DNA of 64,000 nt from an uncultured virus (IMG/VR IMGVR_UViG_3300005662_008418) (IMGVR_UViG_3300005662_008418), one strand, 5' to 3'. Counted from the stretch's first letter, positions 14,882 through 64,000 are shown. Notes: generated from the sequence alone by a model not told the origin. Program-made: numbers and translations.

Positions 14882-15161
14882 TTACTATATCGTCAAGAGA
14901 TTTACGCTTCTCTTGTGTTGCAAACAATTCTAGTCTACATATGCCATTTTGCATTTTGGTTCTACTATATTTGATAAATGAATCTTTTAGAATATTTTCA
15001 CAAGGTCCAATGTCTCTTTCTAGGATATGCAGCATAATAGACTTTTTAGATTTTTGCAATTTAGCAATTGCATGTACAATATCGGAAATATTATAAATTT
15101 TAACATTTACATTATTTTTGCTTTTTGACTGAACAGGCTTTTTGCTTTTTTTATTGCTCAT
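14850..15161 (-). CDS. Hypothetical basic protein
   Basis: 103-aa ORF overlapping the upstream stop (ATGA). Confidence 0.55.
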   Translation of the reverse strand: MSNKKSKKPVQSKSKNNVNVKIYNISDIVHAIAKLQKSKKSIMLHILERDIGPCENILKDSFIKYSRTKMQNGICRLELFATQEKRKSLDDIVSEFMSQFEEM

Positions 15162-17371
15162 ATTATGACTGGGTAAACCTTCTTCCTAGACCTCATTCTT
15201 CTCTTCTTGGCATCGTTCCTGATTTTGTCCCAATTTGTTCTTTGAGCACTCGTGGCCGTAAGACCATCGGATACAGATCCCCTATACTTGTAAAGTGGGA
15301 CATTAAGAAAATGTCCGTGCCCCATTTCTTCAAGCATATATCCCATAAATTTATCGACAGAAGATGAATAAGGACAATCAAAAACATTTCTCATGTCGGG
15401 AAACTTTTTCATAGTTCGCCAATGGCTATAGCAATGAACTCTTCTTGTATGGGATTCAAAATCAAGAATACTCTTAGGTGGTCTTTGAGGTACCTGTCTG
15501 GATATACCTCCACCAACCATGGACATGTCATGATTGCACCTAACATACTGAGACCATATAAAAGATATCTTTGGATTAGACATGTATCTCGCCATTACCA
15601 CAGGAACTGCATTTGGAAGCAAGGCATCATCTGCGTCTAGTACTCCAAAATATTCCCCCGTACCGGTCTGAAGAGCTATCCCATAACTCTTGGCGCACCC
15701 CTTTTTGCCGTCATTCTTAATGTGTATCAAATCTATGTTGTTTTTGGCAAATTCTTCATACATAGATTTGATAATCTCATCTGTATCATCCGAGCTATCG
15801 TCATCCACAAAGACTACTTCAAGTGGTCTGTAATTTTGCTCTAATATGGATTTCATCCAATCTCCTAAATATCTGCCCTTACAGTAAGCAGCACTTATGA
15901 TAGTAAATTTTGGACCTTCAAATATTTTTTCAGCCTTTTCTATCTTACTAAAAACCTCGCTTACAAATAATTCACTTGCGACGGGCTTAATTCCATCTTT
16001 ATTTTTTACGCGAGGAGCTGACTTTATCATAATCTTATCTTTATTTTTATCTTTATTTTTATTTTTATCTTTATTATTTTTTATACTCTTACGCTCAATA
16101 TCAGCATCCTTTAACGCCTTACTTTCTTTCTCTTTGATCTTATTTTTATCTTTATTTTTATCTTTATTAAGTTCTGCGCTTTTCTTTATTTCTACAGCCT
16201 TAGGAACTGACGGATGCTTAAATGCAACCTTCCTATTACCCCTAATGATAAAATCATTTTTGTTTTTAGCCATGTTTTGGTCTGCTTTTGAACTTCCGGG
16301 AGTCTGGGATATATTTGCTATAACATCTTTTCTTATTTTTTTAATATTTACACTTTCCACAGCATCTACATACAACTTAGACATTCTTAAAAAACTATCA
16401 TCATTTGCTGCTATTTCTAGACACTTATTTCGAAGTTCTTCTATTTTATTATTTTCAATAATTTCTCTTACTATACTGGCTGCTTGATTTAAATCTCTAA
16501 AAAGATATCCATTTTTACCTGGAATTATTATTTCATTGTTGCCAGGTTTATCAGAGCAAATTACAGGAACTCCCATTGCCAATGACTCTAATATTGACAT
16601 ACTTGTTCCCTCTGGAAGATTTATGTCATATAAAAAAAATTCCCATGAACTCATGAGGTCAAAACGAACTTCTTCGCTCTCGATGTTGCCTTTAAAATCT
16701 ATTTCATTAATATTCCGCTTGGCATCAGCATAAGATCTAGCTTCTCCTATCATGGCACCACCGCCAAGATATTCCATCGTCAGAGGCTTGCCAAAATCAG
16801 TGCCACAGAACCAATCAGTAAATTTATTGCTATATTTAATTAAATTTAAAGTATTTGATCTGCCAATTACTCCGCTTCTAACCTCGCCAATTGTTTTAAC
16901 TTTTTCCTTGATCCATTTTGAGCTAACAGCATTATGTATAGTGGTTAGATTAGTTTTTGGATTTAATTTTTGAAATGTACTTTTCATGTAGTTGCTAACG
17001 CAAATACACAAATCAGGTCTTCCTACTAAGCAATTTGATGGATTAACGGAGTATGTATGACTAACAACAATAGTCTTACATACTCCTCTGGGGATATAAG
17101 AAAGAATCCTTCCTATGTTTGTATTCATTAATTTATGAATAAAAACAACATCAAATTGATGTAAAAACTGATTTAAATTTTCATAATGAACATAAACTGC
17201 GTCTTGCTCAAAAAAATCTGGGTTCTCTACGTGCTTGACATCCTTCTTGGAAGCTACGACGACTTTTTGATCCCAGTTATTCTTGCAATGAGAAATGCCA
17301 AGCCTTATCTGCTTAAGAGAAGCCAGAGCACCACCGTTGAAAGCCTTTTCACATAGATGAGCTATGCGCAT
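15158..17371 (-). CDS. Fused glycosyltransferase: N-terminal GT4 (GT-B), Lys-rich linker, C-terminal GT2 (GT-A)
   Basis: EGTSMSILESLAMGVPVICSD (GT4 Ex7E); FTIISAAY, FVDDDSSD, VLDADD (GT2). Confidence 0.9.
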   Translation of the reverse strand: MRIAHLCEKAFNGGALASLKQIRLGISHCKNNWDQKVVVASKKDVKHVENPDFFEQDAVYVHYENLNQFLHQFDVVFIHKLMNTNIGRILSYIPRGVCKTIVVSHTYSVNPSNCLVGRPDLCICVSNYMKSTFQKLNPKTNLTTIHNAVSSKWIKEKVKTIGEVRSGVIGRSNTLNLIKYSNKFTDWFCGTDFGKPLTMEYLGGGAMIGEARSYADAKRNINEIDFKGNIESEEVRFDLMSSWEFFLYDINLPEGTSMSILESLAMGVPVICSDKPGNNEIIIPGKNGYLFRDLNQAASIVREIIENNKIEELRNKCLEIAANDDSFLRMSKLYVDAVESVNIKKIRKDVIANISQTPGSSKADQNMAKNKNDFIIRGNRKVAFKHPSVPKAVEIKKSAELNKDKNKDKNKIKEKESKALKDADIERKSIKNNKDKNKNKDKNKDKIMIKSAPRVKNKDGIKPVASELFVSEVFSKIEKAEKIFEGPKFTIISAAYCKGRYLGDWMKSILEQNYRPLEVVFVDDDSSDDTDEIIKSMYEEFAKNNIDLIHIKNDGKKGCAKSYGIALQTGTGEYFGVLDADDALLPNAVPVVMARYMSNPKISFIWSQYVRCNHDMSMVGGGISRQVPQRPPKSILDFESHTRRVHCYSHWRTMKKFPDMRNVFDCPYSSSVDKFMGYMLEEMGHGHFLNVPLYKYRGSVSDGLTATSAQRTNWDKIRNDAKKRRMRSRKKVYPVII
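16035..16170. repeat. Imperfect 6/12-bp tandem repeats encoding NKDKNK in the GT linker
   Basis: (TTTATTTTTATC)-like units at about 16035-16076 and 16135-16170. Confidence 0.7.
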
Positions 17372-17373: not shown

Positions 17374-17865
17374 CTATGCATTTCTCGCTTCGTATTCTTC
17401 TCTATAGAATTGCCACACAAAATCATCTATAACTCCATCGCCACCATCACATCCAGATTGATGTTTGCATATATTTTTAACATATGGAACCGCATCTAAT
17501 GGACAGAAACTGATAGATGCTTTTTGCAAAACAGGAATATCTATCCAATGATCACCTATAAAAGCGACATGATCAAAAGAGATGTTCATCTTTTCAGTCA
17601 GCTGATTCATGAAGGCCAACTTATTGGATATACCATATGCTAGTGGGATATCTTCAGATTTGAATCTATGAATAGTCGCATGATCACTCGCACCAGACAG
17701 ACCCATCACTGGTATTTTTAATACATTTTTTATAAAGTTAATGGCAAAAAAATCTCTAGTGTTAAATCTCTTTGAAACATTTCCCTGGTGGTCGTACGTA
17801 TATCCAGAGTCAGTTAATACTCCATCAACATCTGTGACTATTAATTTTATATCATTTATTGGCAT
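17374..17865 (-). CDS. KdsC-family HAD phosphatase (KDO-8-P / KDN-9-P / NeuAc-9-P phosphatase-like)
   Basis: TDVDGVLTD, KRFNTRD, AFIGDHWID, GGDGVI. Confidence 0.88.
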   Translation of the reverse strand: MPINDIKLIVTDVDGVLTDSGYTYDHQGNVSKRFNTRDFFAINFIKNVLKIPVMGLSGASDHATIHRFKSEDIPLAYGISNKLAFMNQLTEKMNISFDHVAFIGDHWIDIPVLQKASISFCPLDAVPYVKNICKHQSGCDGGDGVIDDFVWQFYREEYEARNA

Positions 17866-18706
17866 TGAAAATCCGCATTTTTTTAGCTTGAATTGATTCC
17901 TCTTCTGTCATATCTCCACGCTCACCTAGCGCCAGACCAACCGCCAATATGTCCCTTTTTAATCTTCGTAAACCATCTGGTTCCAGACTAGCCGCAGCAT
18001 CTGTATGTCTAAATGCTCTATCATCCACAAAATGTCTTTCATCATATTTAGCGCCAAGCATCATGGCGGCGATGTCCATTGCTATACCATAGCCATGATT
18101 AGAGAAAGCTGCTTCAAACCCATTATTAATAATTTCAGATATGCCCAACATTTGCATTTTATCAAAAGAGCATGGGTACTCGGAAACGCAATGATATAAA
18201 ACCACCCTATCTCGATAGGAGGATAAAAAATCAAATATTTCTACCCTATCATTCCTATTAGTCATTCCTAAAGATATGTGTATTTTACTGTTGCAGTTTT
18301 GCAAACAATAATTTATTAGATCAAAATCGTGATTACATGCAGATGGTATTTTCAATAGATCTGGATTTAAGGAAATTATACCCTTAGCACTCTCCATATC
18401 CCATACACTACAACCATACAAAACTCCATAAGCGTGACATGTGTCTCGCAAAATCACATGATCTTCCAGAGATAATTCCAGATTGATTCGGTGCTCCAAA
18501 TAGGTTGAACCGTATGCAAAATTAGGATTAGGATGAGGGTGATTTTTTAAATGATCTGGAGTAGAAAGATATGGATTTCTCTTTTGGAACTTAACATAGT
18601 CTGCTCCGTTTTTTGCAGCTAGTCCCGTGAGAAATAGCGCCCTTGACAGGCTGCCACCATGAACACAACCTATTTCTGCGACTATTTTGCAATCTTTTTC
18701 ATCCAT
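17852..18706 (-). CDS. neuB: NeuB-family nonulosonic acid (9-phosphate) synthase without a C-terminal SAF domain
   Basis: VAEIGCVHGG, VKFQKR, LKIPSA, ISLGM, HCVSEYP, FSNHG, ERHF...TDAAASLEP; only 284 aa. Confidence 0.92.
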   Translation of the reverse strand: MDEKDCKIVAEIGCVHGGSLSRALFLTGLAAKNGADYVKFQKRNPYLSTPDHLKNHPHPNPNFAYGSTYLEHRINLELSLEDHVILRDTCHAYGVLYGCSVWDMESAKGIISLNPDLLKIPSACNHDFDLINYCLQNCNSKIHISLGMTNRNDRVEIFDFLSSYRDRVVLYHCVSEYPCSFDKMQMLGISEIINNGFEAAFSNHGYGIAMDIAAMMLGAKYDERHFVDDRAFRHTDAAASLEPDGLRRLKRDILAVGLALGERGDMTEEESIQAKKMRIFNANK

Positions 18707-19392
18707 GTATTAATATTCTCATTTTCTATTAATTTTCGGCATAGCTCTAGATCGATAGGTTCATCTATCTGCAAAGATTGGATTTTATCAACTGGAATGA
18801 TTTTACAATTACCAACATGCCTGTCTGCCGTTATGTAGAAATCTCCAGATATGAAGCTGTAAACATTGCCGCAGTCATGCCATGCAAGTTCTTCTTCAGC
18901 GTATTCCTGACGCATTTTTCTGCTAGAAAATTGCTTAAGAGCATGATTGCCTGAATATTTAGTCCAGAATAATGGAGTATGAGGAAAAGCAGTAAAGGCA
19001 GATACTCCTGATCGCACTTCTTGTATACATTTTTTAATCAAATCTCCGTATCTAAATATAGATGTTGGCTGCAAGAACACTATTTTTTCCTCTTCCTTGA
19101 TAGCACAAGTTTTTATTGCATGAAGAATAGACAATTCGGATGGGGACTTATCTCCAGCAAAGCAAGAAGGTCTTGGTAAGGGATAGACTCTCTTGTCATT
19201 AAAATCGCTGCATATTTTCAATATGTCTGACGAATCACTTGAAACTATAACGCTGTCGCATACATCATCCTCCAAGGCTGCCAGTACCGACCACATAAAC
19301 ATTGGCCAACCATTAATATCAACCGTATTCTTACCGGGGATACCCTTGCTCCCGCCTCTAGCCAATATAATAGCACATGTTTTTTCTGTCAT
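18682..19392 (-). CDS. neuA: Acylneuraminate cytidylyltransferase (CMP-nonulosonate synthetase)
   Basis: IILARGGSKGIPGKN, VSSDS, LQPTS, RQE, QIDEPIDL. Confidence 0.93.
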   Translation of the reverse strand: MTEKTCAIILARGGSKGIPGKNTVDINGWPMFMWSVLAALEDDVCDSVIVSSDSSDILKICSDFNDKRVYPLPRPSCFAGDKSPSELSILHAIKTCAIKEEEKIVFLQPTSIFRYGDLIKKCIQEVRSGVSAFTAFPHTPLFWTKYSGNHALKQFSSRKMRQEYAEEELAWHDCGNVYSFISGDFYITADRHVGNCKIIPVDKIQSLQIDEPIDLELCRKLIENENINTWMKKIAK

Positions 19393-20093
19393 AATTTTTC
19401 CAAGTCTATGCTAGGGAATATACCCATAGGATTGCCGGGAGTAGCATCAAAAATATTAACTGTATCCTTATTTTGATTATATAAGTCTGAAAAATATTCC
19501 AACACTCCATTGTAGTCAAATTTGTCCCAAACACCCCTATTCGGCTTTCCGTCAACTCTATTTACATTTACCGAGCCTTCCCAGAAATAACGCTTATCGT
19601 TTTTTACTCCATTATCCATTCCGCATAAAATAATTGGATCGCAACCCATTATGGCCAATATATGTATTGCACTTCCAGATGAAGTTCTAGCTCCTATTAT
19701 TTTTTCAAAAGAGTTACGCTTAATTAAAACGCCATCTAGATTTTTTCTTCCAGTTGATGGTTGATACCACCAATCATGGTCAAACATGACAGTCTTATCC
19801 GCTCCAAAAAACTTATCAAATACGCCCAACTTACTGCGGTACATAAATTTACAACAAGACGAGTTTTTAAGTTCTTTATAAAAATATGACCAATTACTTA
19901 CGGCTATGTCATCGGAAATCCAGTATTTTACACTTGGATCCAGCAGTATCGAAGAATTCACCGCGATGTTTGGGTGTTTAAGTATTAATTTCTTATCTAT
20001 ATCAGATATGCTAGGTCCAGCACCTATAACAATGCCTGCTTTACCATTATGAATATTGTAAAAATCTTCCAGTTTAGGCATGATGAAATTCAA
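19389..20093 (-). CDS. DUF115/Maf-like (GT42-related fold) putative nonulosonate transferase
   Basis: IVIGAGPS, AVNS, WISDD, TSSGSAIHILAIMGCDPIILCGMD. Confidence 0.75.
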   Translation of the reverse strand: MNFIMPKLEDFYNIHNGKAGIVIGAGPSISDIDKKLILKHPNIAVNSSILLDPSVKYWISDDIAVSNWSYFYKELKNSSCCKFMYRSKLGVFDKFFGADKTVMFDHDWWYQPSTGRKNLDGVLIKRNSFEKIIGARTSSGSAIHILAIMGCDPIILCGMDNGVKNDKRYFWEGSVNVNRVDGKPNRGVWDKFDYNGVLEYFSDLYNQNKDTVNIFDATPGNPMGIFPSIDLEKL

Positions 20094-20793
20094 AACTTTT
20101 TATTTTACTATTTTTATTCATATTAAATATCTTTACATTTTTAATATCAGCATATTTCTGTAGTGCATCAAAGCAATGTATATTCTCATTCCAAACAGAC
20201 AGTCTTTGATCTCTGGGCTGGACTAGAGCCAGAGGCTTTGTATTAAATTTCCTATCCCCCTTATAGTCCACTACCTGCATGGGCTTGTCTCTTTCTTCCC
20301 AGGAACTCCAGAAATATCCATTATTGTCTATGTCGTGATCTACACCAAACAAATATATGCATTTAAAACCAAAACCTATAGCCATATCAATACAAGTAGG
20401 AACGCTAGAGCAATAACACAGACCATTCTCACTCTCATCTGTAATTATGTTTTCACTTCTAGGAGAAAAGTATTTTACTCTTTTTGGAAGAATATCACTG
20501 TATTTTTCCCAGCTATCTCTAACAACTATGTTGCAAAAACTGGCTTTAACCTTATCCCAATAACTCCACCTTAGACACAGAGCATCATTAGACACCCAGA
20601 ATCTGCCTTCTTCAGATCCATTATCCCATTTCATCTTCATTATGGCGCTATTGACCGCAAAGCACGGCATTGATTCAAGCATTGACGCATCTGCTTCATT
20701 CAGCGATGGACCCGCCCCGCATATGCAGCACGATTGCCCCAAAAAAGATTCACGATATAATTCTTTGAAACTGTTCTTGCAAATCATCGACAT
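20074..20793 (-). CDS. DUF115/Maf-like putative nonulosonate transferase (paralog)
   Basis: ICGAGPSL, AVNS, WVSND, SSVPTCIDMAIGFGFKCIYLFGVD; the likely start is MSMICK (20793), not the track start at 20859. Confidence 0.75.
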   Translation of the reverse strand: MSMICKNSFKELYRESFLGQSCCICGAGPSLNEADASMLESMPCFAVNSAIMKMKWDNGSEEGRFWVSNDALCLRWSYWDKVKASFCNIVVRDSWEKYSDILPKRVKYFSPRSENIITDESENGLCYCSSVPTCIDMAIGFGFKCIYLFGVDHDIDNNGYFWSSWEERDKPMQVVDYKGDRKFNTKPLALVQPRDQRLSVWNENIHCFDALQKYADIKNVKIFNMNKNSKIKSFEFHHA

Positions 20794-22651
20794 CCACCAG
20801 TTGAGATTCAAAAAGGAACCTTGATGGCTTTTTCGGAGATTTCTTAATTTTGCTGTCAAATATGGAGAATGTTAGCGCAAGACGATCCTCCGCCCTTGTC
20901 ATGGCTACATAAAAAAGCCTTCTTTCCTCATCAATGCCGCCTTCAGCATCTTCTATACTGCGTCTATGAGGAATAATCCCGTCTTCACAGCAGCATATAA
21001 AAACATTCTTAAATTCCAGTCCTTTAGAGGAATGCATGGACATAATTCTAACTCCTTTTTCTTCCTCATCTTTTGGACTACTTAGCGTGGACTTTTCTAA
21101 AATTTCGTATAAACTCATGCCTTTATTAATGCATTCATCTATATACTTGAAGAACTCTTTGACATTGTCCCACTTCTCTTCCATCTTATCTTTATGCTCA
21201 GAAGAAAGCCAAGTAGTATAGTCAATCTCCTCCATTATGCTTTGAAGTTTCTTTCCATCGACATTTTGAGAATGCTTGTTTATTACATCCAATACTGAAC
21301 ATATGCTATCCTTGGTCTTATTGGGAACATCAGAAAGCTGTATATCAGCCATAATTGCCGTTATGCTCTTCTGCCTATAGCAAGCATCTCCAATTTGCTT
21401 TGAAACTTTTTGTCCTATCCCCCTTCTGGGCTTATTGACAAATCTCATTAAACTAATAGCATCATTATTGTTATATATAAATTTTAATATTGCAAGAGCA
21501 TCTCTAACTTCTTCGCGATCAAAAAATCTTCTCGTGCCCAAAACTGAATAAGGTATTCCACGAGAGTTTAAGGCGATTTCCAGTGATCTAGTGAGATGGT
21601 TGGCCCTGATCAAAATGCATATACTCGATGGCTTGATCCCAGCCTGAACTCCCTTCCATATCTGACCAGCAACCCAATCAGCCTCTTCTTCTCTGTCTAG
21701 GAACATTCTCCAAGAAACTGGCGAACCAGATGTCTTAAATGCATGTATGTCTGAATTTATCCTGTTCTTATCACATGATATTAATCTAGAAGCAGCCTCC
21801 ACGACATGAGGATTGCATCTATAGTTCCTAGTCAATTTTATTAACTTACCTCCAGAGTTTATGAACTTTACCAGGTTTTCTGGTCTAGCTCCTCTCCATT
21901 TGTAAATTGACTGGTCTCCATCTCCAACAAGCATGATATTGTTATGCGGAGATATCATCCTAGCCAATTCGAATTGAATAAAATTTGTATCTTGCGCTTC
22001 GTCCACTATAACAAAATCAAAGATGTTACCAACTAATGATGTTCCGTTTTTGATTGATAAATATGGCTCGTGAAGAAGAGCAGTAAAATCGAGGGCTCTT
22101 ATATTTTTCATAGATTCTATGAAGTTGCGAGCCACAGCAGAGTCTGGACCTAAATGATGATCTAAGTTTTCCAAAGTGGGATCATCATTCTCTCTTATGT
22201 CACATATTCTGCCATGCAGCATTCGGGCTTCCGCTGCGTCAATTTTACTGCCCATATCTGAGACAATAGATCGAATCAAATCTACCGCATCATCTTCATC
22301 ATATATGGTAAATTTCCTGCCCTGAGGAATTTTAACAATACCATCTCTTATTAGCTTGGCGAATAAGCTATGAAATGTACTCACGCATATCTTGTCCCAT
22401 CCGCTAACCCCATATTTATTGAATACGGTTTCCAGCCTTTTCTTCATCTCTTCAGCGGCTTTATTAGTAAATGTCACCATGCATATCTTACTGGGATCAA
22501 TTCCGTTACACACTAAATTTAATGCTCGGAATATTACCACCCGAGTTTTCCCAGCCCCTGGACACGCACTAATCAATGCTGGTCCATATATGTGACCCAC
22601 TGCCTCTATCTGCTCTTCAGTGAGTTCATTGCTAAAATTTATTTTTTGCAT
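20750..22651 (-). CDS. UvrD/PcrA SF1 helicase
   Basis: ACPGAGKT, TFTNKAA, STFHS, VDEAQD, VGDGDQSIY, NYR, SMHSSKGLEF, EERRLFYVAMTRA. Confidence 0.95.
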   Translation of the reverse strand: MQKINFSNELTEEQIEAVGHIYGPALISACPGAGKTRVVIFRALNLVCNGIDPSKICMVTFTNKAAEEMKKRLETVFNKYGVSGWDKICVSTFHSLFAKLIRDGIVKIPQGRKFTIYDEDDAVDLIRSIVSDMGSKIDAAEARMLHGRICDIRENDDPTLENLDHHLGPDSAVARNFIESMKNIRALDFTALLHEPYLSIKNGTSLVGNIFDFVIVDEAQDTNFIQFELARMISPHNNIMLVGDGDQSIYKWRGARPENLVKFINSGGKLIKLTRNYRCNPHVVEAASRLISCDKNRINSDIHAFKTSGSPVSWRMFLDREEEADWVAGQIWKGVQAGIKPSSICILIRANHLTRSLEIALNSRGIPYSVLGTRRFFDREEVRDALAILKFIYNNNDAISLMRFVNKPRRGIGQKVSKQIGDACYRQKSITAIMADIQLSDVPNKTKDSICSVLDVINKHSQNVDGKKLQSIMEEIDYTTWLSSEHKDKMEEKWDNVKEFFKYIDECINKGMSLYEILEKSTLSSPKDEEEKGVRIMSMHSSKGLEFKNVFICCCEDGIIPHRRSIEDAEGGIDEERRLFYVAMTRAEDRLALTFSIFDSKIKKSPKKPSRFLFESQLVDVDDLQEQFQRIIS

Positions 22652-23745: not shown

Positions 23746-24110
23746 GAAACACCTTCCTGATCAATGGTAAAGACAGTGAACGTAACTCCAGTCTTTTCCA
23801 CTTCTCCGAACTCCACCTTATCGAAATTGGCAATCATTCCAATGTCGTCACCATGCTTCTTTACGAACTCCCTAGCTACGATATACGCCTTGAGGGCGTT
23901 GTTGATGCTAAGCACACCAACTGCCTTCATCTTGACTTCTTCCTTCTTCTCGATCTCCTTAGCAATAGCTCCAGCCACTCGGTGAATGTAGTCCCTAACG
24001 GCAGGAGAACCGCCCTCTGAGTCTTTCATTCCCTTAATGCGCAGCACTGCAGATCCGCCATTGTTCGAGTCATTCTGAATATCGCTATTTACATTAATTT
24101 CTGAACTCAT
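23742..24110 (-). CDS. spoVS: Stage V sporulation protein S (SpoVS, Alba-like) homolog
   Basis: VAGAIAKEI...KAVGVLSINNALKAYIVAREFV...NFDKVEFGEVEKTGVTF aligns by eye with SpoVS VAGALAGVL...QAIGAGALNQAVKAVAIARGFV...AFTDIQIDGEERTAIKL; AAGGAG SD before the ATG at 24110. Confidence 0.85.
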   Translation of the reverse strand: MSSEINVNSDIQNDSNNGGSAVLRIKGMKDSEGGSPAVRDYIHRVAGAIAKEIEKKEEVKMKAVGVLSINNALKAYIVAREFVKKHGDDIGMIANFDKVEFGEVEKTGVTFTVFTIDQEGVS

Positions 24111-47262: not shown

Positions 47263-47315
47263 TTCATTTTCTCCGTATAAAAATAAAATTAATATACACC
47301 GTGTAGCCAACCAAT

Positions 47316-53300: not shown

Positions 53301-56300
53301 GTGCCTATTCCATCTTTTTGCTATAAACCCATTGCTTCTTATGGCAAAATAAGTCTTATTCTGATTTGACAATCTAACAAAAGCATTATTTAAGTCAGAT
53401 CTTCCATATGTAATAGAAGATGTGCCATCACCATTTGAAACTATCGCGATATTATCATGAAGTATTTCAACATTATAAACCCAATACGGAACATTAGCCT
53501 GCTCAAGATAGTCCTGAAGTTTTCCTATCTGAATTTCAACCAACTGTTCTGGAGCCAGTATGGAAATAAACGCATCAGGCATGCCCTGCCCAGCGAAGGA
53601 TCCTCCGTTATAGCATTTTAAAAATGCTGTAGCCATCGTTCTTTCATCAGCAGAGGAACTATCTATAGAAGATATTCTGGCATCTCTGCTGATTTGAAAC
53701 ACGGCAAAATCATCGCCATCTGCGTAAATTCTCTGAGAGTATCTGCCATTAGTAAGAGAGCAGAACATGCCAGTTCTTCTGACCAATTGATTTGCAGAAT
53801 TACCAAGACCACTAGGAACAAGTGCTGGAGGATATATGCAAACAACTTTCCACGCTGTTATTGTCTTACCTCCATATGTAACACTTGCCTTAATCACATA
53901 CATCTCAGGAACGAGAACAACCCGGACATCGCTTCCCGTGTTTCCGTCAGCAGATGTAAAATACGTGACTTCTTGAATTAACTCACTGGTCACATTTGAA
54001 GCAGGACCGAATCTTACATTACTGGAATATCCTCCAAGCGTCAAGTCATATACTTGTGCGGAATTGCTTGATGCCAAAGAGTAGAAAGGTCTGTTCTTGC
54101 CATTTCTTAAAGGAATCATTTCCCAGTCAATCCGTGTTCCGTCTGGAACTGGAGAAGAAAATTCCTCTAAAGAAGAAACAGTAGCTCCTTCTACATCACC
54201 GATTACAATAGCCCGATTTGGATCTATTATAGCAGCATAAGCAGTCTGTCGCGCTACATCAACTCCGTCTGGAGATGGAACCTGAGCATCTAAGCTCAAG
54301 AACAATGGGTCAGGGAATGCGAAGTACATTCCAGCAGCAGCAGGTAAACCTCCTATTACTGTTTGAGCAAAAACAGTAGCGGCAGAAGATCGCGATGGCG
54401 TTGGGAAATAAAAACTTGCCTCGCTCCAGCCATTTTCTTCATTGTTATAAAATATGGCTGTTCTCTGTCTTGGAGATATGTAATTTGCTGGCACATATTC
54501 TCTCGTAAAATCTGGACCAAAAACTGGATCTCCAGCTATCTGACCTGTACATTTAGTTTCTCTAGGAGTCCCATTTTCACCATTAAATTGAACGCATCCA
54601 CGATAGCCAGCAGGCTTACTACACCTATTCATGAGTCCATCAGATGACCAAGATGGAAGCGAATCCTCGAATGCATATAGATTAGCAGCAGACCCAGATG
54701 GCATGAATCCATCTTTATATTTTACTCTAAATGTAAACTGAATAGGCCTGGAACGACCAACATAAGCTCCATTGTAAACTGCCGTAGTAAGATCCGATGA
54801 AGATCCCGCACCGCAATCGTAAAAATTGTTTATATTGGCAACATTGCTACCAGGCAAACAGGGGACAATTGTCTTGTCTGGAGATGTTACCTCAATTTTA
54901 AAAGGATTAGAAAGCCATACTCTTATAGGTTGAGTATCAAATGCAAAAGTACTTGATTCCTCAGCTATGCCTGACACAAGAGAATTAACAATCCTTTTCC
55001 TTCTTATTGACATTCTAGCAGAAAAATACAGACCAGATACGTATCTCAATTTCTCTGCGCCAAATGCGTCTGTATCCAAAACTATTTTTACAAAACCATC
55101 TGCTGATGTTCTTCGCGTGAATCTGCATAATTCTCTGAACTTAAAGTTCAGTCTCGCTGGAACTCCAGTAAGAGGATCAAATGATTTATAAGAATCTACA
55201 CTATCATAAACACCATCAGCAGTTCCCCTATCCGTAATCATTAGATTACTTGGAACATCATAGTAATCTCCAGCATTGGAACTTATGTCATAATTAGTTC
55301 TAAAAACAAAGTCAAACTCGTCCTCAAGAGGTCTGCCATATATATCAGAAACTTTAAAGTAGAAAAATACTCTGTCGTCAAACCATCCATCAACATCGTA
55401 AAACATTTTAGGATTGACGGGATTTATCAACTTAATCGCTATAGATCCACGTTCTAATTTATAAGCCCTTTGCGCTAATGGTGGTTCCGTGGGAATCTGA
55501 TTGTCTGTTTCTGGGTCAGGTATTGATGATATAAAAATGGGTTGACCATATTTTCCATCTGCATTTCTTAGCACAACTGCATAATGAGCCAGCTTGCCAT
55601 TTTCCAATTCGGTAGACAGATCGCGATTAAGATTGAATGTCTGTATTGCGTCTACAGCATCGGATCCTATTGGCGTACTGGCAGACACTCTTCCATAATA
55701 GTGCGTGAACTCCGTTGCCGTACTTATGCCACAGAACACTGGGTAAGCGCCAGAATGCGTATTGCTATTTATAAAGCTATCCAAGTCGGTATAAGTCAAC
55801 GCGCCATCTTGCGAAAATGGTTTTGCATAGTAGACAACAACGGTATCATGATCAGAATTAACAGGTAAATCCCATGTCAATCTGATCTTTTTATCTCCTG
55901 CAATGTAATTTACATTAGAAACCACATCAGGAGGTATGGAAACCGGCAGATAGTCACCCATTGATGATGGGTGATATTCAATCATGCCACTGTCTTCCAC
56001 TACACTGTGCTCATCTGCCTCATTTATAGAAAACGCTCTTATATAGTGCCTATAACCGTCATAGACTATATTGCCCAACTCGCTGTCTCGCATAGGTAAT
56101 GAAAATGGACCATGAAATACAACTTCATTTAAAATGCCGTTATTGGAATCATATAATGTTAAACCATCTTCTGGATCAACTGGACCAAGATCGTCTCCAT
56201 AACATATACGAGCAGAGACATCAGATCTAGCTATACCATTTAATCCAGGAGGAATAGGGACATTTTGAGGTCTAGATGAATCTCCACCATATTTACCAAC

Positions 56301-58763: not shown

Positions 58764-58764
58764 T

Positions 58765-60141
58765 TTATAGCCTCAATTGTTGTATTATTTTTCTTTTGTT
58801 GCCTACGGGATTGGAAAATGTGGGAACATTAACAGTATTATCCAATTCAGATACTTGATTTTCCAGTAACAATCCTTCGCCAGTAGTCGGAGAATCCCAC
58901 ACTGCATTACTGGAAAGCATATACAATATTTTTTCGGATTCTAAACCAAACTGATATCCGTCAAATGATGCCGTAAAAACATGCTGAGAGTCTGCAAAAT
59001 CCGATGCAACCGCCCCCTGGGAGTTAAAGCCAATAGCCCTACCATCCCAAGAATCATTTATAAACCTATTACCCGTGTATAGTTCTGGACTATGAACAAA
59101 ACCTAAGAATATAGACTTACTGCCATCCCAGGCAAATAGATTATGTCCCTGCTCCCCATTGTTCATAAAATTAATGAAGTCATTGGTGCTAGATATTCCG
59201 GTTAGTCTGTTCGGGGCTGGTAAATTTTCAGAATAAATTACATGATTGTCTCCCCTACTAATTCCATGCACACATGCTATTTTTCTCGTATATGTTACCA
59301 CGTATACAGGAAGTTCAAGAGCATACTTAAGTACTTCTGCGTCGGTACAGAATCGAACTCTCCTGACCGAAGCGGGGATATTAACAGCTAATTGAGATAT
59401 TTTTATGTTTTCATAAACACTAGATGGCATATTCGCCAACTGATCAACTCCAGCGCTCCTCATAGCTTGACCTAAATTTACAGTTTGTATTACAGGAATA
59501 ACAGTGGTCGATCCGCTTACGGGATCTATATATTTAACAGAACTTATATTAGAAGTAGATGCATCAAATGATATTAAATGCCTCTTAGTGATGGGAGTAA
59601 AAAGAGTATCATAAAAGTAGTGCCTACCTAGTGATGAAGATATTCTTGTATCGGCATTAATCCACGACTTATCTATATTAGCAAATACAGAGCCAGGAAG
59701 AAACGTATTATAAGGTTGCGAAGTACTAATGATACCGTTTACATCTCTATTAAATATATCATGCCTACTAGCATTGGCATCATCATTCAAAGACAATGTT
59801 GCGGCTAACGAAAGATTCTGATTACCAATCTGATATGCAATATTCACAGCATCTCCAGAGCAAAACACATCAACACCGTTAATGCCCTTTTTAAAATAAG
59901 ATCCTCCACTAGATATATATGGGAATGGCATTGAAATTTCCGATACTGGCTTTACCAATATCGCTGAGCGTGTCGTGTTTATGATGGATGATGATATAAA
60001 AATAAAGCCATCAGATGATACGCTCTCGTCGATGACATCAAAAAGATGAACTAAATCTCCTCTTTGCCAGTTTGCACTTTGAAGCCTTGTTTTATTAACT
60101 ATAAAAGACATTGTACCTGAAGAAGATCCTATTACGCACAT
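58765..60141 (-). CDS. Hypothetical beta-rich protein, probably structural
   Basis: 458-aa ORF coupled (TAATG) between two giant genes. Confidence 0.65.
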   Translation of the reverse strand: MCVIGSSSGTMSFIVNKTRLQSANWQRGDLVHLFDVIDESVSSDGFIFISSSIINTTRSAILVKPVSEISMPFPYISSGGSYFKKGINGVDVFCSGDAVNIAYQIGNQNLSLAATLSLNDDANASRHDIFNRDVNGIISTSQPYNTFLPGSVFANIDKSWINADTRISSSLGRHYFYDTLFTPITKRHLISFDASTSNISSVKYIDPVSGSTTVIPVIQTVNLGQAMRSAGVDQLANMPSSVYENIKISQLAVNIPASVRRVRFCTDAEVLKYALELPVYVVTYTRKIACVHGISRGDNHVIYSENLPAPNRLTGISSTNDFINFMNNGEQGHNLFAWDGSKSIFLGFVHSPELYTGNRFINDSWDGRAIGFNSQGAVASDFADSQHVFTASFDGYQFGLESEKILYMLSSNAVWDSPTTGEGLLLENQVSELDNTVNVPTFSNPVGNKRKIIQQLRL

Positions 60142-63100
60142 TATATTGATATCCCATTTTTAATAGACAACATTTTGTTATTAGATGTAGAAAATATATT
60201 ATACAGAAATCCAGTCAGTATTTTCCCGTTTACGGATTCTATAAAATGACTTGGAATATCCGTATATGCATATTGCACTGCCTCCAAAGCCGCATCTTGA
60301 TTATTCATAGGAAATGAAATGTCAGCCCTGTTAAGTGAAGCAAAACCAAGAACTCCGCCTATGAGCAATCTAGTTATGTCATTCTGGTCTGACCTGAATA
60401 CTCCACAAGAAACAACGGATCCAATAGCAACAGGTATTTTTTCCACAAAAGATTGCTGCTCGGGCACAATTATTCTCCTCATGGCTACGCTATCAGCAGC
60501 TCCTAAAAGTACATCTCCGTCATCATGCCATGCGTGACCAGATTTAACAAGTACAATTTTTCCAGCAAATACACAAACGTCTTCAATGCTATCTCCGTCG
60601 TTCCATGCAGAGTCCCCGCCAGCTAAAGAAGAATATTTAAATACAGTTCCGTTTGTTGTGGCTATTATGAAATTAGATGAAACAAAAACTGAAATGCCAT
60701 CAGAGCTGCTTTTTACATTTTCTATCACTGCTTGATCTGGAATATTATATGCAAGTTTAAATTTATATTCTGAAAAATATCTTATAAATATCTGCCTATC
60801 AGCCATAAGCAAAATGCCATTTTCCATCATGCATGATGCGCGTACGTCTCCAACCACGCCCTGGTGTGGAAGTGCTTCCACTATAGATCCTTCTAAATTA
60901 ATTTTTATAAAATATGTTTTAGTTATTATAATTAGATGACCATCGATAAAATATGCAGAAATTGGATCTCCGTAATTTTCTATGTCAACAAAAACCGTTT
61001 CTGCATATTCGCTAATTATTCTTATAAAAGCGCTTGTGCCAAAACATCCCGCAGCGTATATTCCGTTTTCTTCATAGGCAGTAAGGCAAATTATCTTGTC
61101 TAAATCCTCAAAAGATGCACCAACATCAATTACTTCATTAAAACATATAGAAGACTTGTCCTGATCGAGCCATGATAAATCTGATGTTTTCAACAACTTA
61201 TTTGAGGTATGCGCTGGCAACGATGCTCCAGACTCGGCATTTAATGTATTATAATTATTTAATATATTAATATGCTGTGCTTGACTGAATGCCGATGGAG
61301 CACCAGAATTAACCCCCTCAAATGAATCTTCTATGACAAAATGCTCGACAACTCCAGAATCATAAAAATTCTCTCTGTCAACATCTATTGTTACATTATC
61401 GTATTTTCCTATTGCACTGTCACTATTTATATGAACTCTACCAGTTATTGAATCAGCATAACCAACAGCAACAGCGCCAACTTGCTCGGAAAAGTCCAAT
61501 CCAAATGCATCACATACCGATCCGCCAAAAGGTTGTATTTTAGCGTTCATTCCAAATAAATTCTGTATCTGACTATCGCTTGTTGAAACTGTATCAAAAT
61601 ACCATCCAAGACGCTGCGCTGGTTCAGAAGAAGAACTACTTGATGATGACGATGAAGAAGAAGAAAATAGAGCATTTATTGATATCACAAAGTCTGGAGC
61701 ATAAAAAGCAGTTGCGAGCACGATAAAATTACCACCATCGTCAAATCTAAAATCAGTCACCTTCCTTACGGTAACAACAATACTTTCATTTTGTGTAGGA
61801 ACAAAATTAGGATTAATCGCAAATCCGAGATAGGCAAAATTGACTCCGGGGCGAGGCGACTCTATCCCTATCGTGCCTCCAGGATTAAATCCGAACCAGC
61901 CGAAATAATTATTTGCAGAGCTGTGATCAAAAGGACTAGCTATATTACTTTCGGATGATTTTAAATGCAATGGTATCGTAGAAGGAGACCATGTTATTTG
62001 CAATGTGTGGTATCCATCACATGATGTCACAAAATTACTATTAGGATATTTTTGTTCTATCGGTGCGGTATTGTTATATCCCACGAAGTTCTGCCAGACA
62101 ACCCCAGAACAATCTATAGCACTAGAGCTAGAACTGCTGCTACTTGAACTGCTAGCAATGTTGACATTAAATGCTCTTATTGCCAAGTTCCAAGATGATA
62201 TCACTCCACTAGCGATATCTTTATGATCTTCTATATGAAGAGTCCAATCTCCAGACATACTTCTGCCAAAAACTTCAGACGTTATATTGAAGCTAATAGG
62301 GTTAGACCTATTTGCTCCTGGAAGTCCACATAGACCGACTGATGCCCTCCAGGGATTAGCAGATCCAGATGGAACAAATAATCCGTCAGCACCAGCGCCT
62401 ATGCTGCCGTTTGATTCCGCCCAATTCCATAGGTCGGATCCATTATCACTAAAAACATAAGAAGCAACAGAACCATTACTTAATCCAAAATTATGCAAAT
62501 ATGCCGATCCACTTGATGCCAGTTTTCCAATTCTATCCATAAGGATAATCTGCGTATTCCAAGGAGTCTCTACATAAATCCTTAGATCACCTATTGAATT
62601 ATGCTTCAATTCTAATGAAATTTCTAAAGAGCAAATTGTTCCAGTAGAACCAATGTTTAATACATCAGATAAAATTCCAGCAGATGGATTGATACATAGC
62701 ACTGAAAGGTCTGAAGCATCTGGTATGGAAGTATTCGTAATCGTCCTTGTGAAAGTATTCAATATACAGTGAAGACTACTGCTAGAACTACTACTGCTAG
62801 AACTACTACTGCTAGAACTACTACTGCTAGAACTACTACTGCTAGAACTACTAGAACTGCTAGAACTGCTAGAACTGCTACTGCTAGAACTGCTACTGCT
62901 AGAACTGCTACTGCTAGAACTGCTACTGCTAGAACTACTACTGCTAGAACTGCTACTGCTAGAACTGCTACTGCTAGAACTACTACTGCTAGAACTACTA
63001 CTGCTAGAACTACTACTGCTAGAACTACTACTGCTAGAACTACTACTGCTAGAACTACTACTGCTAGAACTACTACTGCTAGATGATGACGAAGAAACTT

Positions 63101-64000
63101 GAGGATCAGATATGAATAATCTTAATGACCACCCAGCATATGTTAAATTCTCAGATCCGCTACCGTGATCTTCTATCCTAAGCCTCCACAAATTAGTTCC
63201 GAAAGTGAATGGGTTTTTTCCAGAAACAAACGAGTTTATGCTTACAACAGGAGGATTATTTGGATCTCCAGTAGGACCAGATGCCACGCACATTCCGCTA
63301 TTTGCTTTATATGCACCAGGAGTGATGGTAACATTGGTTCCTGTATTCTGCTGACAAAAAAGCCATAAACTGTTTGCAGCAGTGTCGCTAAAGACATAAG
63401 TTCCATTTAAATTCTGATTATGCTGAGTCGCATTTTGAGCTGTTAATTTTCCAGATCTGTTCGCAAGTGTTAGCACAGCCTGCAATCCAGTACTTTCATC
63501 TATCCATGGTGCATCTATCAGTATTTTTAGATCACCTACATTTGTATGAACAAGACCAAATATGGTTATTTCCAAAGCGCAAAGTGAACCAGAAATACTG
63601 CAAATAATAGTATTTGAGGTAGATGTTGGACTCGGATGAGAACAAGCATTACTGGCAACAGTGGGACTTCCGATACTAACTGGATTGAATGAATTTGACA
63701 GTATAAATTCAACACAATTAGCAGAAGAACTACTACTAGAACTACTACTAGAACTACTACTAGAACTACTACTAGAACTACTACTAGAACTACTACTAGA
63801 ACTACTACTAGAACTACTACTAGAACTACTACTAGAACTACTACTGGAATTACTGCTAGAACTGCTACTAGAACTACTGCTAGAACTACTACTTGAACTA
63901 CTACTAGATGAAACAATATCCAATAATACACATTGGTCTGGAACAATTGATGCGTATAAATTAGGATAATCAACTTGATTTAAAGAAACCACATCAACCC
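60141..64000 (-). CDS. Poly-serine-tract protein with two proprotein-convertase P-domain-like modules, >1283 aa, 5' end outside the window
   Basis: The frame stays open upstream of the track start (GTT GAT GTG GTT...). P-domain patterns: LEITIFGLVHTNVGDLKILI..WRLRIED..WSLRL and LEISLELKHNSIGDLRIYV..GDWTLHIED..WNLAI. Four Ser runs. Confidence 0.8.
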   Translation of the reverse strand, partial: VDVVSLNQVDYPNLYASIVPDQCVLLDIVSSSSSSSSSSSSSSSSSSSSNSSSSSSSSSSSSSSSSSSSSSSSSSSSSSSSSSSSSSSSSSSANCVEFILSNSFNPVSIGSPTVASNACSHPSPTSTSNTIICSISGSLCALEITIFGLVHTNVGDLKILIDAPWIDESTGLQAVLTLANRSGKLTAQNATQHNQNLNGTYVFSDTAANSLWLFCQQNTGTNVTITPGAYKANSGMCVASGPTGDPNNPPVVSINSFVSGKNPFTFGTNLWRLRIEDHGSGSENLTYAGWSLRLFISDPQVSSSSSSSSSSSSSSSSSSSSSSSSSSSSSSSSSSSSSSSSSSSSSSSSSSSSSSSSSSSSSSSSSSSSSSSSSSSSSSSSSSSSSSSSSSSSSSSSSSSSSSSSSSSLHCILNTFTRTITNTSIPDASDLSVLCINPSAGILSDVLNIGSTGTICSLEISLELKHNSIGDLRIYVETPWNTQIILMDRIGKLASSGSAYLHNFGLSNGSVASYVFSDNGSDLWNWAESNGSIGAGADGLFVPSGSANPWRASVGLCGLPGANRSNPISFNITSEVFGRSMSGDWTLHIEDHKDIASGVISSWNLAIRAFNVNIASSSSSSSSSSSAIDCSGVVWQNFVGYNNTAPIEQKYPNSNFVTSCDGYHTLQITWSPSTIPLHLKSSESNIASPFDHSSANNYFGWFGFNPGGTIGIESPRPGVNFAYLGFAINPNFVPTQNESIVVTVRKVTDFRFDDGGNFIVLATAFYAPDFVISINALFSSSSSSSSSSSSSEPAQRLGWYFDTVSTSDSQIQNLFGMNAKIQPFGGSVCDAFGLDFSEQVGAVAVGYADSITGRVHINSDSAIGKYDNVTIDVDRENFYDSGVVEHFVIEDSFEGVNSGAPSAFSQAQHINILNNYNTLNAESGASLPAHTSNKLLKTSDLSWLDQDKSSICFNEVIDVGASFEDLDKIICLTAYEENGIYAAGCFGTSAFIRIISEYAETVFVDIENYGDPISAYFIDGHLIIITKTYFIKINLEGSIVEALPHQGVVGDVRASCMMENGILLMADRQIFIRYFSEYKFKLAYNIPDQAVIENVKSSSDGISVFVSSNFIIATTNGTVFKYSSLAGGDSAWNDGDSIEDVCVFAGKIVLVKSGHAWHDDGDVLLGAADSVAMRRIIVPEQQSFVEKIPVAIGSVVSCGVFRSDQNDITRLLIGGVLGFASLNRADISFPMNNQDAALEAVQYAYTDIPSHFIESVNGKILTGFLYNIFSTSNNKMLSIKNGISI
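62775..63095 (-). repeat. Mostly 15-bp tandem repeat encoding about 107 consecutive serines
   Basis: Plus-strand unit CTACTACTGCTAGAA with CTGCTA variants and a few shorter in-frame units; minus-strand codons TCT AGC AGT AGT AGT. Confidence 0.92.
63723..63911 (-). repeat. 12-bp tandem repeat encoding about 62 serines (one Asn)
   Basis: Plus-strand unit CTACTACTAGAA; minus-strand codons TCT AGT AGT AGT. Confidence 0.92.

Follow-up and report, generated by a model that had tools for sequence, protein, structure and literature searches.

A candidate phage-encoded CMP-nonulosonate and protein-glycosylation system in a clade of huge tailed phages

The stretch of DNA analysed here (hereafter the window; 64,000 nucleotides from an uncultured virus, IMG/VR IMGVR_UViG_3300005662_008418) raises the question of what a virus might do with genes for an activated nonulosonic acid and a set of glycosyltransferases (GTs) encoded in the company of very large modular proteins and long serine runs. 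An initial annotation had described a phage-like locus combining a nonulosonate pathway, a pair of DUF115 proteins, GT genes and an epimerase, and this gene content is confirmed by profile searches of 54 window ORFs against Pfam, with matches reported at E<=0.001 (Table 1). The window comes from a huge tailed phage, since its NeuB protein is present on a 210,960-bp contig, and the clade to which it belongs is uncultured. Comparisons were made with five whole related phage records (G001-G005, spanning 219-548 kb), of which G003 and G004 (488 kb, with terminal repeats) are complete, and with 16 IMG/VR loci surveyed to 10 kb on either side. In the window, the sugar-system genes and the giant-protein genes lie without exception on the minus strand.

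Table 1. Features of the window, with coordinates counted from its first nucleotide
Feature	Coordinates	Strand	Basis or remark
SDR epimerase/dehydratase, GalE-like	4792..5769	-	Pfam and NCBIfam profile matches
dNMP kinase	10300..11196		flanks the nonulosonate module with replication genes
GT4-GT2 fusion, 737 aa	15158..17371	-	Pfam
C0-type HAD phosphatase, nearest KDN-9-P phosphatase	17374..17865	-	profile and solved-structure comparison
Putative NeuB-family nonulosonate (9-phosphate) synthase without SAF domain	17852..18706	-	PF03102, 165.3 bits
Predicted CMP-nonulosonate synthetase-like cytidylyltransferase	18682..19392	-	PF02348, 62.1 bits
DUF115b, paralogue of DUF115a	19389..20093	-	PF01973, 28.2 bits, under the 34.6 cut-off
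DUF115a, predicted Maf/CstII-fold transferase	20074..20859	-	PF01973, 36.0 bits, cut-off 34.6
GT2 transferase, conserved-trio member	42053..42850	-	Pfam
GT4 transferase, conserved-trio member	42813..43928	-	Pfam
GT4-like protein, weak match	43921..44889	-	PF00534, 21.6 bits, 1.7e-4, under cut-off
255-aa protein, candidate GT-A-like transferase	44886..45653	-	weak CTP_transf_3, 5.1e-4, under cut-off
GT4 transferase	45650..46564	-	Pfam; in G002-G005 the homologue follows the nonulosonate module
GT2 transferase, conserved-trio member	46561..47310	-	Pfam; probable ATG near 47262
3815-aa giant, Kelch propeller, weak VWA and weak NanM matches	47316..58763	-
458-aa protein between the poly-Ser protein and the giant	58765..60141	-	no family match
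P-domain (P_proprotein) modular protein with poly-Ser linkers	60141..63998	-	PF01483, 1.6e-11
Ser runs of 11 (62121-62153) and 13 residues (61626-61664)	61626..62153	-
107-residue Ser run, 15-nt tandem unit	62775..63095	-
Ser runs of 20 and 42 residues, single Asn between, 12-nt tandem unit	63723..63911	-

The core of the system is a three-gene route to a CMP-nonulosonate, comprising a SAF-less NeuB, a HAD phosphatase and a cytidylyltransferase. The synthase scores 137.7 bits against TIGR03569, whose cut-off is 399.65, and hence is not a NeuB equivalog; in having no SAF domain it resembles homologues of ~280 aa (1852 of 3349 candidates at E<=0.001). The phosphatase, in the alignment of which DxD and GDxxxD motifs are seen, has as its top NCBIfam model the KDN-9-phosphatase NF058599 (110.8 bits against a cut-off of 180; KdsC 88 bits), and its closest solved chains are 4hgq and 3e81 (76.6 and 74.6 bits; the KdsC chain 1j8d 65 bits). 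The nearest PDB entries to the cytidylyltransferase are the CMP-Neu5Ac synthetases 6ifd and 1eyr, and it scores under the NCBIfam cut-off for the PseF equivalog. All the pathway enzymes in fact fall far under NCBIfam equivalog cut-offs, and the identity of the sugar is thus not fixed by profiles. Since a phosphatase is present and a search for the NeuC-type 2-epimerase (PF02350) found it in none of the five related records, we infer that the product is KDN made from mannose-6-phosphate. The profile evidence supports the view that these enzymes would constitute a coherent CMP-nonulosonate pathway, accompanied by sialyltransferase-like and other transferases. The neighbours of this module are replication genes (UvrD and the dNMP kinase), and the epimerase, a GalE-like nucleotide-sugar epimerase/dehydratase, is kept in G001 and G004.

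The two proteins previously labelled Maf/DUF115-like do possess the DUF115 domain and the Maf fold, but they are bare catalytic domains of ~236 aa (homologues, 188-258 aa) and not full-length Maf, which in 5mu5 has 632 aa. The true start of DUF115a probably lies ~25 codons into the ORF, and its predicted structure (pLDDT 86.8) spans residues 26-261 only. Using VIA-align, the best match of this model is Maf 5mu5 (Z 14.3, rmsd 3.9, 186 aligned), followed by MptE (Z 12.4), Cst-I 2p2v (Z 12.1) and CstII 1ro8 (Z 11.7), such that MptE, a pterin kinase, is nearly as near in fold as Maf; Foldseek recovers CstII at 9.3e-5 and Maf at 1.6e-4. Neither window protein matches the CST-I family PF06002 at E<=0.001, a distant homologue (P0042) carries that domain, and PHROG 4603, annotated as 'alpha-2,3-sialyltransferase', is matched at 2.8e-7. 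Further, no flagellar family was found among the 54 window ORFs, the neighbours of the DUF115 genes being phage replication genes, and a scan with the subfamily pattern over 185,579 species genomes found no member. By analogy with CstII, the pair could equally cap glycans.

Of the seven additional GT genes that had been proposed, the GT4-GT2 fusion stands, its halves being separate genes in relatives, as do five of the six genes of the tandem block at 42053-47310 (one by a weak family match), while the sixth, the 255-aa protein, is a lead only: its Atlas structural match, to a cluster carrying the automatic name GT family 2, has a TM of 0.80, under the tool's own bar for naming a family. For the first transferase of the block the likeliest start is an ATG near 47262 that follows a GGAG; it would lie ~53 nt past the TAA of the giant gene, in keeping with the earlier estimate of about 50 nt. 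None of the window sugar genes encodes a multi-TM segment, and the lipid-carrier and export families Bac_transf, Glycos_transf_4, Polysacc_synt and Wzy_C are each found in none of the five related records; their absence speaks for an acceptor that is soluble and cytoplasmic, for instance the phage's own proteins.

Serine runs of about 107, 62, 11 and 13 residues had been ascribed to a giant beta-rich protein. These runs are real (107, 20+42, 11 and 13), but it is the P-domain protein that carries them, and no run of five or more serines is found in the 3815-aa giant, which is itself kept in all five related records. The P-domain protein has at least 1285 aa, its 5' end being cut by the end of the window; its full-length orthologue P0049 has 1602 aa, with the positions of the tracts conserved and their sequences different. 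The tracts are inter-domain linkers that separate P-domain and LamG-type modules, and this role recurs across several of the clade's unrelated protein families (P-domain, LamG, Cys-rich and giant proteins). The 12- and 15-nt tandem units mix AGY and TCN codons, and the units of relatives differ in sequence yet also encode serine, which suggests that selection acts on the protein. Serine tracts occur in five of the six clade genomes inspected (the whole records and the window). In G004 no ORF of at least 150 aa has a tract with at least 80% Ser+Thr over 20 aa, and the equivalent protein has only a short SD-rich linker. The co-occurrence of poly-Ser and sugar genes that had been put forward as a check is therefore not one-to-one: the complete G004 keeps every sugar module with zero serine tracts, and poly-Ser cannot be the sole acceptor.

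Inspection of gene order in the relatives places this system in a broader setting. In the surveyed IMG/VR loci, UvrD is present in 16/16, the cytidylyltransferase in 15/16, DUF115b in 14/16, NeuB in 12/16 and the phosphatase in 11/16, and all five genes occur in 5/5 whole records, as does NeuB when sought by its Pfam model. Among the new findings, both the nonulosonate module and a GT2-GT4-GT2 trio following the giant homologue are conserved in all five. In G002-G005, three of the six block genes of the window follow the nonulosonate module, indicating that the two clusters exchange genes. In G004, the genes for portal, protease, major head protein (phrog_2522, 5.2e-67) and a minor tail protein share one strand with a tail-fibre-J-like giant and lead into the giant array, with the giant genes forming the end of the head-tail module. 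Three further GT genes, at 297.2, 322.0 and 340.7 kb, are interleaved with the head, tail and giant genes; one GT, which in G001 is found at the contig start, lies inside the giant array of G003, G004 and G005. Thus, the sugar system does sit beside the giant-protein genes, as first described, and in relatives also inside the structural and giant array, the window itself showing only the transferase block behind the giant gene. However, the entire ~60-kb region is syntenic throughout the clade, and therefore the GT-giant adjacency is no better conserved than that between a GT and an Mre11-like exonuclease gene. Window proteins gave no match to PHROG structural families; it is the gene position in relatives that suggests a virion role for the giants.

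Putative glycosylation of the virion is the best reading of these observations, the whole of which draws on sequence and gene order. Tentatively, and with somewhat less than even confidence, we propose a phage-encoded cytoplasmic protein-glycosylation system in which serine linkers, where present, would be the main acceptors. The SAF-less synthase would join PEP to a phosphorylated hexose, most economically mannose-6-phosphate to give KDN-9-P, the KDN-9-P-phosphatase-like HAD enzyme would remove the phosphate, and the cytidylyltransferase would yield the CMP-sugar, so that central metabolites could be turned into an activated nine-carbon acidic sugar in three enzymatic steps. The assembly of O-linked glycans would fall to soluble enzymes of the GT4 and GT2 families, with UDP/GDP-sugars supplied partly by the GalE-like epimerase; the acceptors would be giant, modular and fibre-like structural proteins of the phage itself, to which DUF115a and DUF115b might add the nonulosonate, either directly onto serine or as a cap. 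Poly-Ser linkers modified in this way could form mucin-like stalks. The original proposal of a glycosylation system thus retains its coherent pathway, clade-wide conservation and structural-gene setting, but loses full-length Maf and a one-to-one coupling to poly-Ser; its negatively charged coat with a part in shielding or host mimicry stays a conjecture.

A variant of this proposal, which we consider unlikely, holds that phage structural proteins are glycosylated elsewhere, on capsid, decoration or fibre domains, with poly-Ser serving as flexible spacers whose repetitive DNA eases the shuffling of modules. It would account for the retention of all the sugar genes in G004, where a GT gene follows the major head gene by ~1.8 kb, and for a 69-aa module between serine runs in G001 that is 91% identical in two giants; additionally, tracts parting P-domain and LamG modules resemble the polyserine linkers described for Saccharophagus carbohydrases (PMC2386152). 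Against it, the tracts span most of the clade and several unrelated protein families, the genome-specific codon units all encode serine, as would suit a selected chemical property, and serine hydroxyls are the classic site of O-glycosylation. Alternatively, the enzymes might, over a long infection, remodel the surface of the infected cell, be it LPS, capsule, S-layer or flagellin, perhaps blocking superinfection or altering grazing, with the virion not being the target. Chloroviruses make hyaluronan on the host surface, and replication genes of early type surround the nonulosonate module; further, prophage-borne enzymes that modify nonulosonic acids of the host capsule have been described (PMC12053666, PMC6586298). 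This too appears doubtful, given that an initiating phosphoglycosyltransferase, a flippase, a polymerase/ligase and a WecA-type enzyme are found in none of the five related records, two of them complete, and no membrane-spanning transferase in the window, although the phage could still feed CMP-sugar to the machinery of the host.

Much less probable than either is a transfer of sugars to phage DNA as a hypermodification against restriction. DNA glycosylation by phage transferases is established (PMC12619734, citing Pyle 2024), and the dNMP kinase and replication genes flank the module. However, the thymidylate-synthase/hydroxymethylase family occurs in only 2/5 relatives, with none in the complete G003, and its strong member looks canonical (417 bits) and is distant from the transferase genes. 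None of the 54 window ORFs matches the T4-type DNA glucosyltransferase family at E<=0.001, and we know of no nonulosonate on DNA. The components of the preferred reading, virion glycosylation, may be set against known systems.

Long pure serine runs between beta-sandwich binding modules are shared with the modular secreted carbohydrases of Saccharophagus degradans, where the linkers serve simply as spacers; those linkers belong to bacterial secreted enzymes, and the passage describing them reports no dedicated glycosylation genes (PMC2386152). With the Maf flagellin O-glycosyltransferases (Magnetospirillum magneticum Maf, 5mu5), the phage proteins share the DUF115/MptE-like domain and an adjoining CMP-nonulosonate pathway, but, unlike the multi-domain Maf (~600 aa), they are without flanking domains and form a conserved paralogue pair outside any flagellin context. 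Campylobacter CstI/CstII (GT42) have a similar single-domain fold and size (solved chains 233-275 aa) but are only ~15-19% identical to the phage proteins; they have a GxGPS-type N-terminal motif, and CstII caps lipo-oligosaccharide, not protein. The KDN pathway of Bacteroides thetaiotaomicron, consisting of KDN-9-P synthase, KDN-9-P phosphatase and CMP-KDN synthetase, matches the proposed phage route in using three enzymes and a phosphorylated intermediate, and supplies the closest phosphatase by profile and structure; the phage version differs in being virus-encoded, with a phosphatase below the model cut-off noted above and a putative substrate.

The serine-rich repeat adhesins of Gram-positive bacteria combine Ser-rich tracts in surface fibres with GT4 enzymes (GtfA/GtfB or SdgA/SdgB) encoded nearby. 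The phages resemble them in both respects, but the phage tracts are homopolymeric serine and not dipeptide repeats, the accessory Sec system is absent, and GT4s of the GtfA/B or Sdg type were not found, the SdgA model NF047880, which has a cut-off of 800 bits, scoring only 33.7 and 19.3. No nonulosonate pathway is, to our knowledge, known in mycobacteriophage virion glycosylation. As reported for mycobacteriophages, whose transferases glycosylate their own virion (Freeman et al. 2023, via PMC12619734), transferase genes lie among structural genes, here in G004. In the mycobacteriophages, of ~50-150 kb, the glycans are described at the C-terminal ends of subunits of the capsid and tail tube (PMC12619734), in contrast to the giant fibre-like proteins, poly-Ser linkers and CMP-nonulosonate module of the 200-550-kb phages considered here.

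The minus strand carries all plausible ORFs of at least 100 aa, indicating that transcription runs from 64000 toward 1, and the GC content is ~0.38 across the whole window. Searches of the window found neither a tRNA nor an Rfam family reaching the gathering score; promoter and terminator scans gave counts not above those of shuffles, and no operons were defined.

Features of the window, in order of transcription
Feature	Coordinates	Strand	Remark
Modular protein with poly-Ser runs	63998-60141	minus	5' end cut by window end
458-aa ORF		minus	second in transcription order, after poly-Ser protein
3815-aa giant protein	47316-58763	minus	third, after 458-aa ORF
Six sugar-transferase-type genes in tandem	47310-42053	minus	next after giant
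GT gene	46561-47310	minus	GT2; trio
GT gene	45650-46564	minus
Transferase-type gene	44886-45653	minus	weak, cytidylyltransferase-like profile match
Transferase-type gene	43921-44889	minus	GT4 match under cut-off
GT gene	42813-43928	minus	GT4; trio
GT gene	42053-42850	minus	GT2; trio
Large replication block			after GT block; Mre11-like exonuclease, helicase with intein, DnaB, split primase, split Pol III alpha, SSB, RecA/UvsX-like protein, Cas4-like nuclease, UvrD
SNF2/ResIII-type helicase	37126-39120	minus	mini-intein, aa 279-415 (Intein_splicing, 1.5e-18)
DnaG-type primase, zinc-ribbon gene	33476-34093	minus	~8 kb from Toprim gene
Pol III alpha	28932-32193	minus	two overlapping ORFs
PHP and N-terminal part	30898-32193	minus
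Remainder	28932-30938	minus
DnaG-type primase, Toprim gene	25052-25816	minus
SpoVS-like protein	23742-24134	minus	1.7e-18; in replication block
Nonulosonate cluster	20859-15158	minus	after replication block
DUF115a	20074-20859	minus
DUF115b	19389-20093	minus
Small unknown genes, dNMP kinase, clamp loader and clamp, sigma-like factor, SDR epimerase			last in transcription order
Sigma-factor-like protein	8411-9220	minus	PHROG 1740, 1.9e-6

Profile searches recovered every enzyme that the initial annotation had named. The synthase of the CMP-nonulosonate pathway belongs to the NeuB family, has 284 aa and lacks a SAF domain, and the nearest relatives of the cytidylyltransferase are CMP-Neu5Ac synthetases. 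The 163-aa HAD phosphatase, with DxD and GDxxxD motifs in its alignment, has KDN-9-phosphatase as its best NCBIfam model (110.8 bits) ahead of the KdsC model (88 bits), both scores being under the cut-offs; its nearest solved chains are 4hgq (76.6 bits) and 3e81 (74.6 bits), with KdsC (1j8d) behind. A phosphatase step after the synthase and before the activating enzyme implies that the intermediate is a 9-phosphate, and, as a NeuC-type epimerase is found in none of five whole related phage records (G001-G005), a Man-6-P route with KDN as the putative sugar is the most economical reading. Man-6-P and PEP would then yield KDN-9-P, KDN and finally CMP-KDN, by a chemistry which we take to be that described in the work on B. 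thetaiotaomicron. The larger relatives have, in addition, further paralogues of NeuB, another cytidylyltransferase and as many as five SDR epimerase/dehydratase genes (G003, 313-327 kb and 344-359 kb; G002, 91.9-94.1 kb), which may constitute additional nonulosonate routes.

The DUF115a homologues (n=47) are ~236 aa long and share the motifs GAGPS, VNS and GxD. When the AlphaFold model of DUF115a (pLDDT 86.8) was compared with solved structures by VIA-align, Maf 5mu5 came out best (Z 14.3), followed by the MptE kinase (12.4), Cst-I (12.1) and CstII (11.7), with Foldseek E-values of about 1e-4 to 1e-3 against this set. Given the neighboring CMP-nonulosonate pathway, it is sensible to read the DUF115 proteins as transferases. 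Both are bare catalytic cores and hence match Maf neither in architecture nor in context. Whereas Maf acts directly on Ser and CstII caps a glycan, the pair could follow either mode. The DUF115a subfamily had no tblastn match in 50,697 GenBank phage records, and a pattern scan of 185,579 species genomes with the subfamily alignment A1 returned four matches, none of them a relative.

Queries of IMG/VR with single proteins (DUF115a; the poly-Ser protein) confirmed no close relative, while an alignment-based scan recovered 16 loci, whose contigs range from 13.6 to 548 kb. Searching these with all window proteins by tblastn revealed the same order of UvrD, DUF115a, DUF115b, cytidylyltransferase, NeuB, phosphatase and GT. 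Within ±10 kb, UvrD is present in all 16 loci, the cytidylyltransferase in 15, DUF115b in 14, NeuB in 12 and the phosphatase in 11, the missing genes falling mostly at contig or locus ends. NeuB and the phosphatase of locus L013, and the phosphatase of L014, were recovered in the respective whole records; locus L006 has no NeuB in the ~8 kb downstream. The five nonulosonate genes are present in all five whole records (G001, 223.6 kb; G002, 297.7 kb; G003, 547.9 kb; G004, 488.1 kb with terminal repeats; G005, 219.2 kb), G003 and G004 being complete by the IMG/VR rating. Likewise, in all five, the giant homologue is followed by homologues of the GT trio marked in the table. In G002-G005 the homologues of the other three genes of the block sit downstream of the nonulosonate module, a relocation which indicates that the two window clusters trade genes; they look like one system. 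As regards the block itself, which had been described as six tandem glycosyltransferases starting about 50 nt past the giant gene, the spacing holds, with the first start codon most likely ~53 nt after the giant stop codon, and four of the six genes have clear GT2 or GT4 matches, but the remaining two match only weakly. For one of these, 44886-45653, a structural lead in the Atlas points to a cluster auto-named GT family 2, below the bar for family naming.

Short NeuB homologues number 1852 at E<=0.001; among the matches listed there are at least 120 cluster representatives at >=50% identity, on contigs of up to 580 kb. The exact NeuB sequence of the window is found on 11 contigs, which reach 210,960 bp. 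In GenBank phages (tblastn, 50,697 records) NeuB was found in two records only, both uncultured, and the best Pol III match is ~32-33% identical. An assignment of the clade to the moraphages was rejected, as the abstract on that group gives a maximum of 307 kb and much of the large-phage machinery as missing (PMC12619734). The replication genes vary among the relatives: in G001, G002 and G004 the two halves of the helicase align almost or entirely without a gap between them, the intein thus being missing there, and the split of Pol III alpha is kept in G001 and G004, with the second part interrupted further in G002 and G005. For the UvrD-like helicase, the alignment falls into two pieces ~1 kb apart in G002 (46833-49688), G005 (79005-81857) and loci L004-L006, which hints at an insertion (intein or homing endonuclease) absent from the window copy. 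The sigma-factor-like gene is kept in G001, G002 and G004.

None of the window proteins matched a PHROG structural family, and PHROG and Pfam searches with P0049 (a full-length relative of the poly-Ser protein), P0050, the 458-aa ORF and the ORFs at 1-2232 and 2232-3149 yielded the P-domain only. In the complete G004, structural genes lie directly upstream of the giant array on the same strand: a portal (1.1e-44), a protease fusion, a major head protein (5.2e-67), a minor tail protein (4.5e-16) and a giant with tail-fibre-J-like repeats (8e-21). These lead into an array of 1000-3258-aa proteins, which is closed by the giant homologue and the GT trio; three further GT genes are interleaved (297.2, 322.0 and 340.7 kb). 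G003, G004 and G005 all keep the giant array with its embedded GT, a gene with which the G001 contig starts. The poly-Ser protein of the window occupies a variable slot immediately upstream of the giant, and its C-terminal domain is homologous to p1157 of G004 and to proteins in G001, G003 and G005. Distal tail or fibre genes typically show such an order, and from it we infer a virion role for the giants. The Kelch β-propeller of the window giant (aa ~2107-2345) gives a weak match to NANM (N-acetylneuraminate epimerase; 4.7e-4); binding of a sugar acid is possible, the match being too weak for a claim.

Ser runs of about 107, 62, 11 and 13 residues had been placed in a giant β-rich protein; they are exactly as described and all lie in the P-domain protein at the window end, the 3815-aa giant having none. 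They are encoded by tandem units of 12 and 15 nt in which AGY and TCN codons are mixed, and relatives have different repeat units that likewise read as Ser. The full-length orthologue P0049 (1602 aa, 47% identity) consists of an ~490-aa N-terminal domain, a Ser-rich linker, a P-domain (the single Pfam P-domain match), an ~140-aa Ser-rich linker, a second P-domain-like module, a Ser linker and an ~560-aa C-terminal domain. Between the two proteins the linker positions are kept and the linker sequences are not, and the layout implies that ~500 N-terminal residues of the window protein are missing from the window. Tracts in which Ser+Thr make up 80% or more over 20 aa are present in one ORF of the window, five giant ORFs of G001, one of G002, six of G003 (including two LamG proteins) and two of G005, but in none of the complete G004, whose equivalent of the poly-Ser protein has a short SD-rich linker only. 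In five more fragmentary records (14-29% complete, so that absence is uninformative) the Ser-run pattern matched in two, one Ser-rich with Arg and the other an ambiguous (GCTGGA)n. This distribution makes poly-Ser a habit of the clade, which serves to link domains in several families unrelated to one another. The expected co-occurrence of poly-Ser with the sugar genes holds in the window and four relatives and breaks down in G004: the sugar system does not require poly-Ser.

For the conserved C-terminal domain of the poly-Ser protein family (six-row alignment A3), AlphaFold modelling reached a pLDDT of only 40.5, too low for a fold to be assigned. Its predicted secondary structure consists of repeated β-blades, and the rows of loci L118 and L111 contain Asp-box-like SxDxGxTW motifs, which we treat as a lead only. 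In G001, a 69-aa module between Ser runs is 91% identical in two different giants (144854-152896; 46877-63667), which suggests that modules are shuffled via the repetitive Ser-coding DNA. Another conserved family combines an ~370-aa Cys-rich domain, a poly-Ser tract and a small C-terminal domain (G002, 153604-155073; G003, 281948-283480; G005, 161727-163400), with paralogous copies nearby in G002 (150.8-151.8 kb) and G003 (283.7-286.9 kb).

That the phage's structural proteins are glycosylated, with the poly-Ser linkers as main acceptors where present, is the reading we tentatively prefer from gene content. In a fuller form, to be held a little more loosely, a widespread clade of 200-550-kb uncultured phages would make its own CMP-KDN or a related nonulosonate, and two minimal Maf/CstII-fold transferases together with GT2/GT4 enzymes would decorate the poly-Ser linkers of giant proteins resembling tail fibres, which would become acidic glycan stalks of a mucin-like kind. 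The initial interpretation is partly supported: the enzymes form a coherent sugar pathway, and a block of transferase genes lies beside the giant. G004, in keeping the system without a tract, favors the view that phage proteins are glycosylated at other sites and poly-Ser merely forms linkers. Polyserine linkers have been described as plain spacers in Saccharophagus carbohydrases (PMC2386152). We nonetheless consider this view rather unlikely.

Remodelling of the host surface seems similarly improbable. Surface-polysaccharide routes require a lipid-carrier initiating enzyme, a flippase, and a polymerase or ligase, but none of the five records contains Bac_transf, Glycos_transf_4, Polysacc_synt or Wzy_C, and no sugar protein of the window has multiple hydrophobic segments, which favors a soluble acceptor; the use of host machinery would, however, be compatible with the missing families. 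DNA modification is very improbable, as a thymidylate-synthase-family gene occurs in only two of the five records and not in the complete G003. Some other explanation takes the small share of probability that is left. The finding lends itself to a concrete comparative test, and the complete relative without poly-Ser leaves room for acceptors other than the tracts.

In titles and abstract openings of the literature we found no published phage nonulosonate pathway aimed at the virion. To our knowledge, self-glycosylation of phage particles has been experimentally shown in mycobacteriophages only, and we know of sialic-acid-like sugars on bacterial flagella, capsules and LPS and of none on phages. 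The targets of phage transferases are given as DNA, host and virion in a paper citing Freeman 2023 (PMC12619734). The present system is a candidate for a new form of self-glycosylation by viruses, seen in a large clade without cultured members. If this is correct, ~15 genes of a whole clade of huge environmental phages would be devoted to an acidic glycan coat on giant fibres, with a bearing on adsorption, particle stability, grazing and aggregation in water and sediment. The minimal three-gene CMP-nonulosonate pathway and the ~236-aa transferases would also be of biotechnological interest. Such a coat would provide the first nonulosonic-acid glycoprotein from a bacterial virus and a phage counterpart to the glycosylated fibrils of giant viruses.
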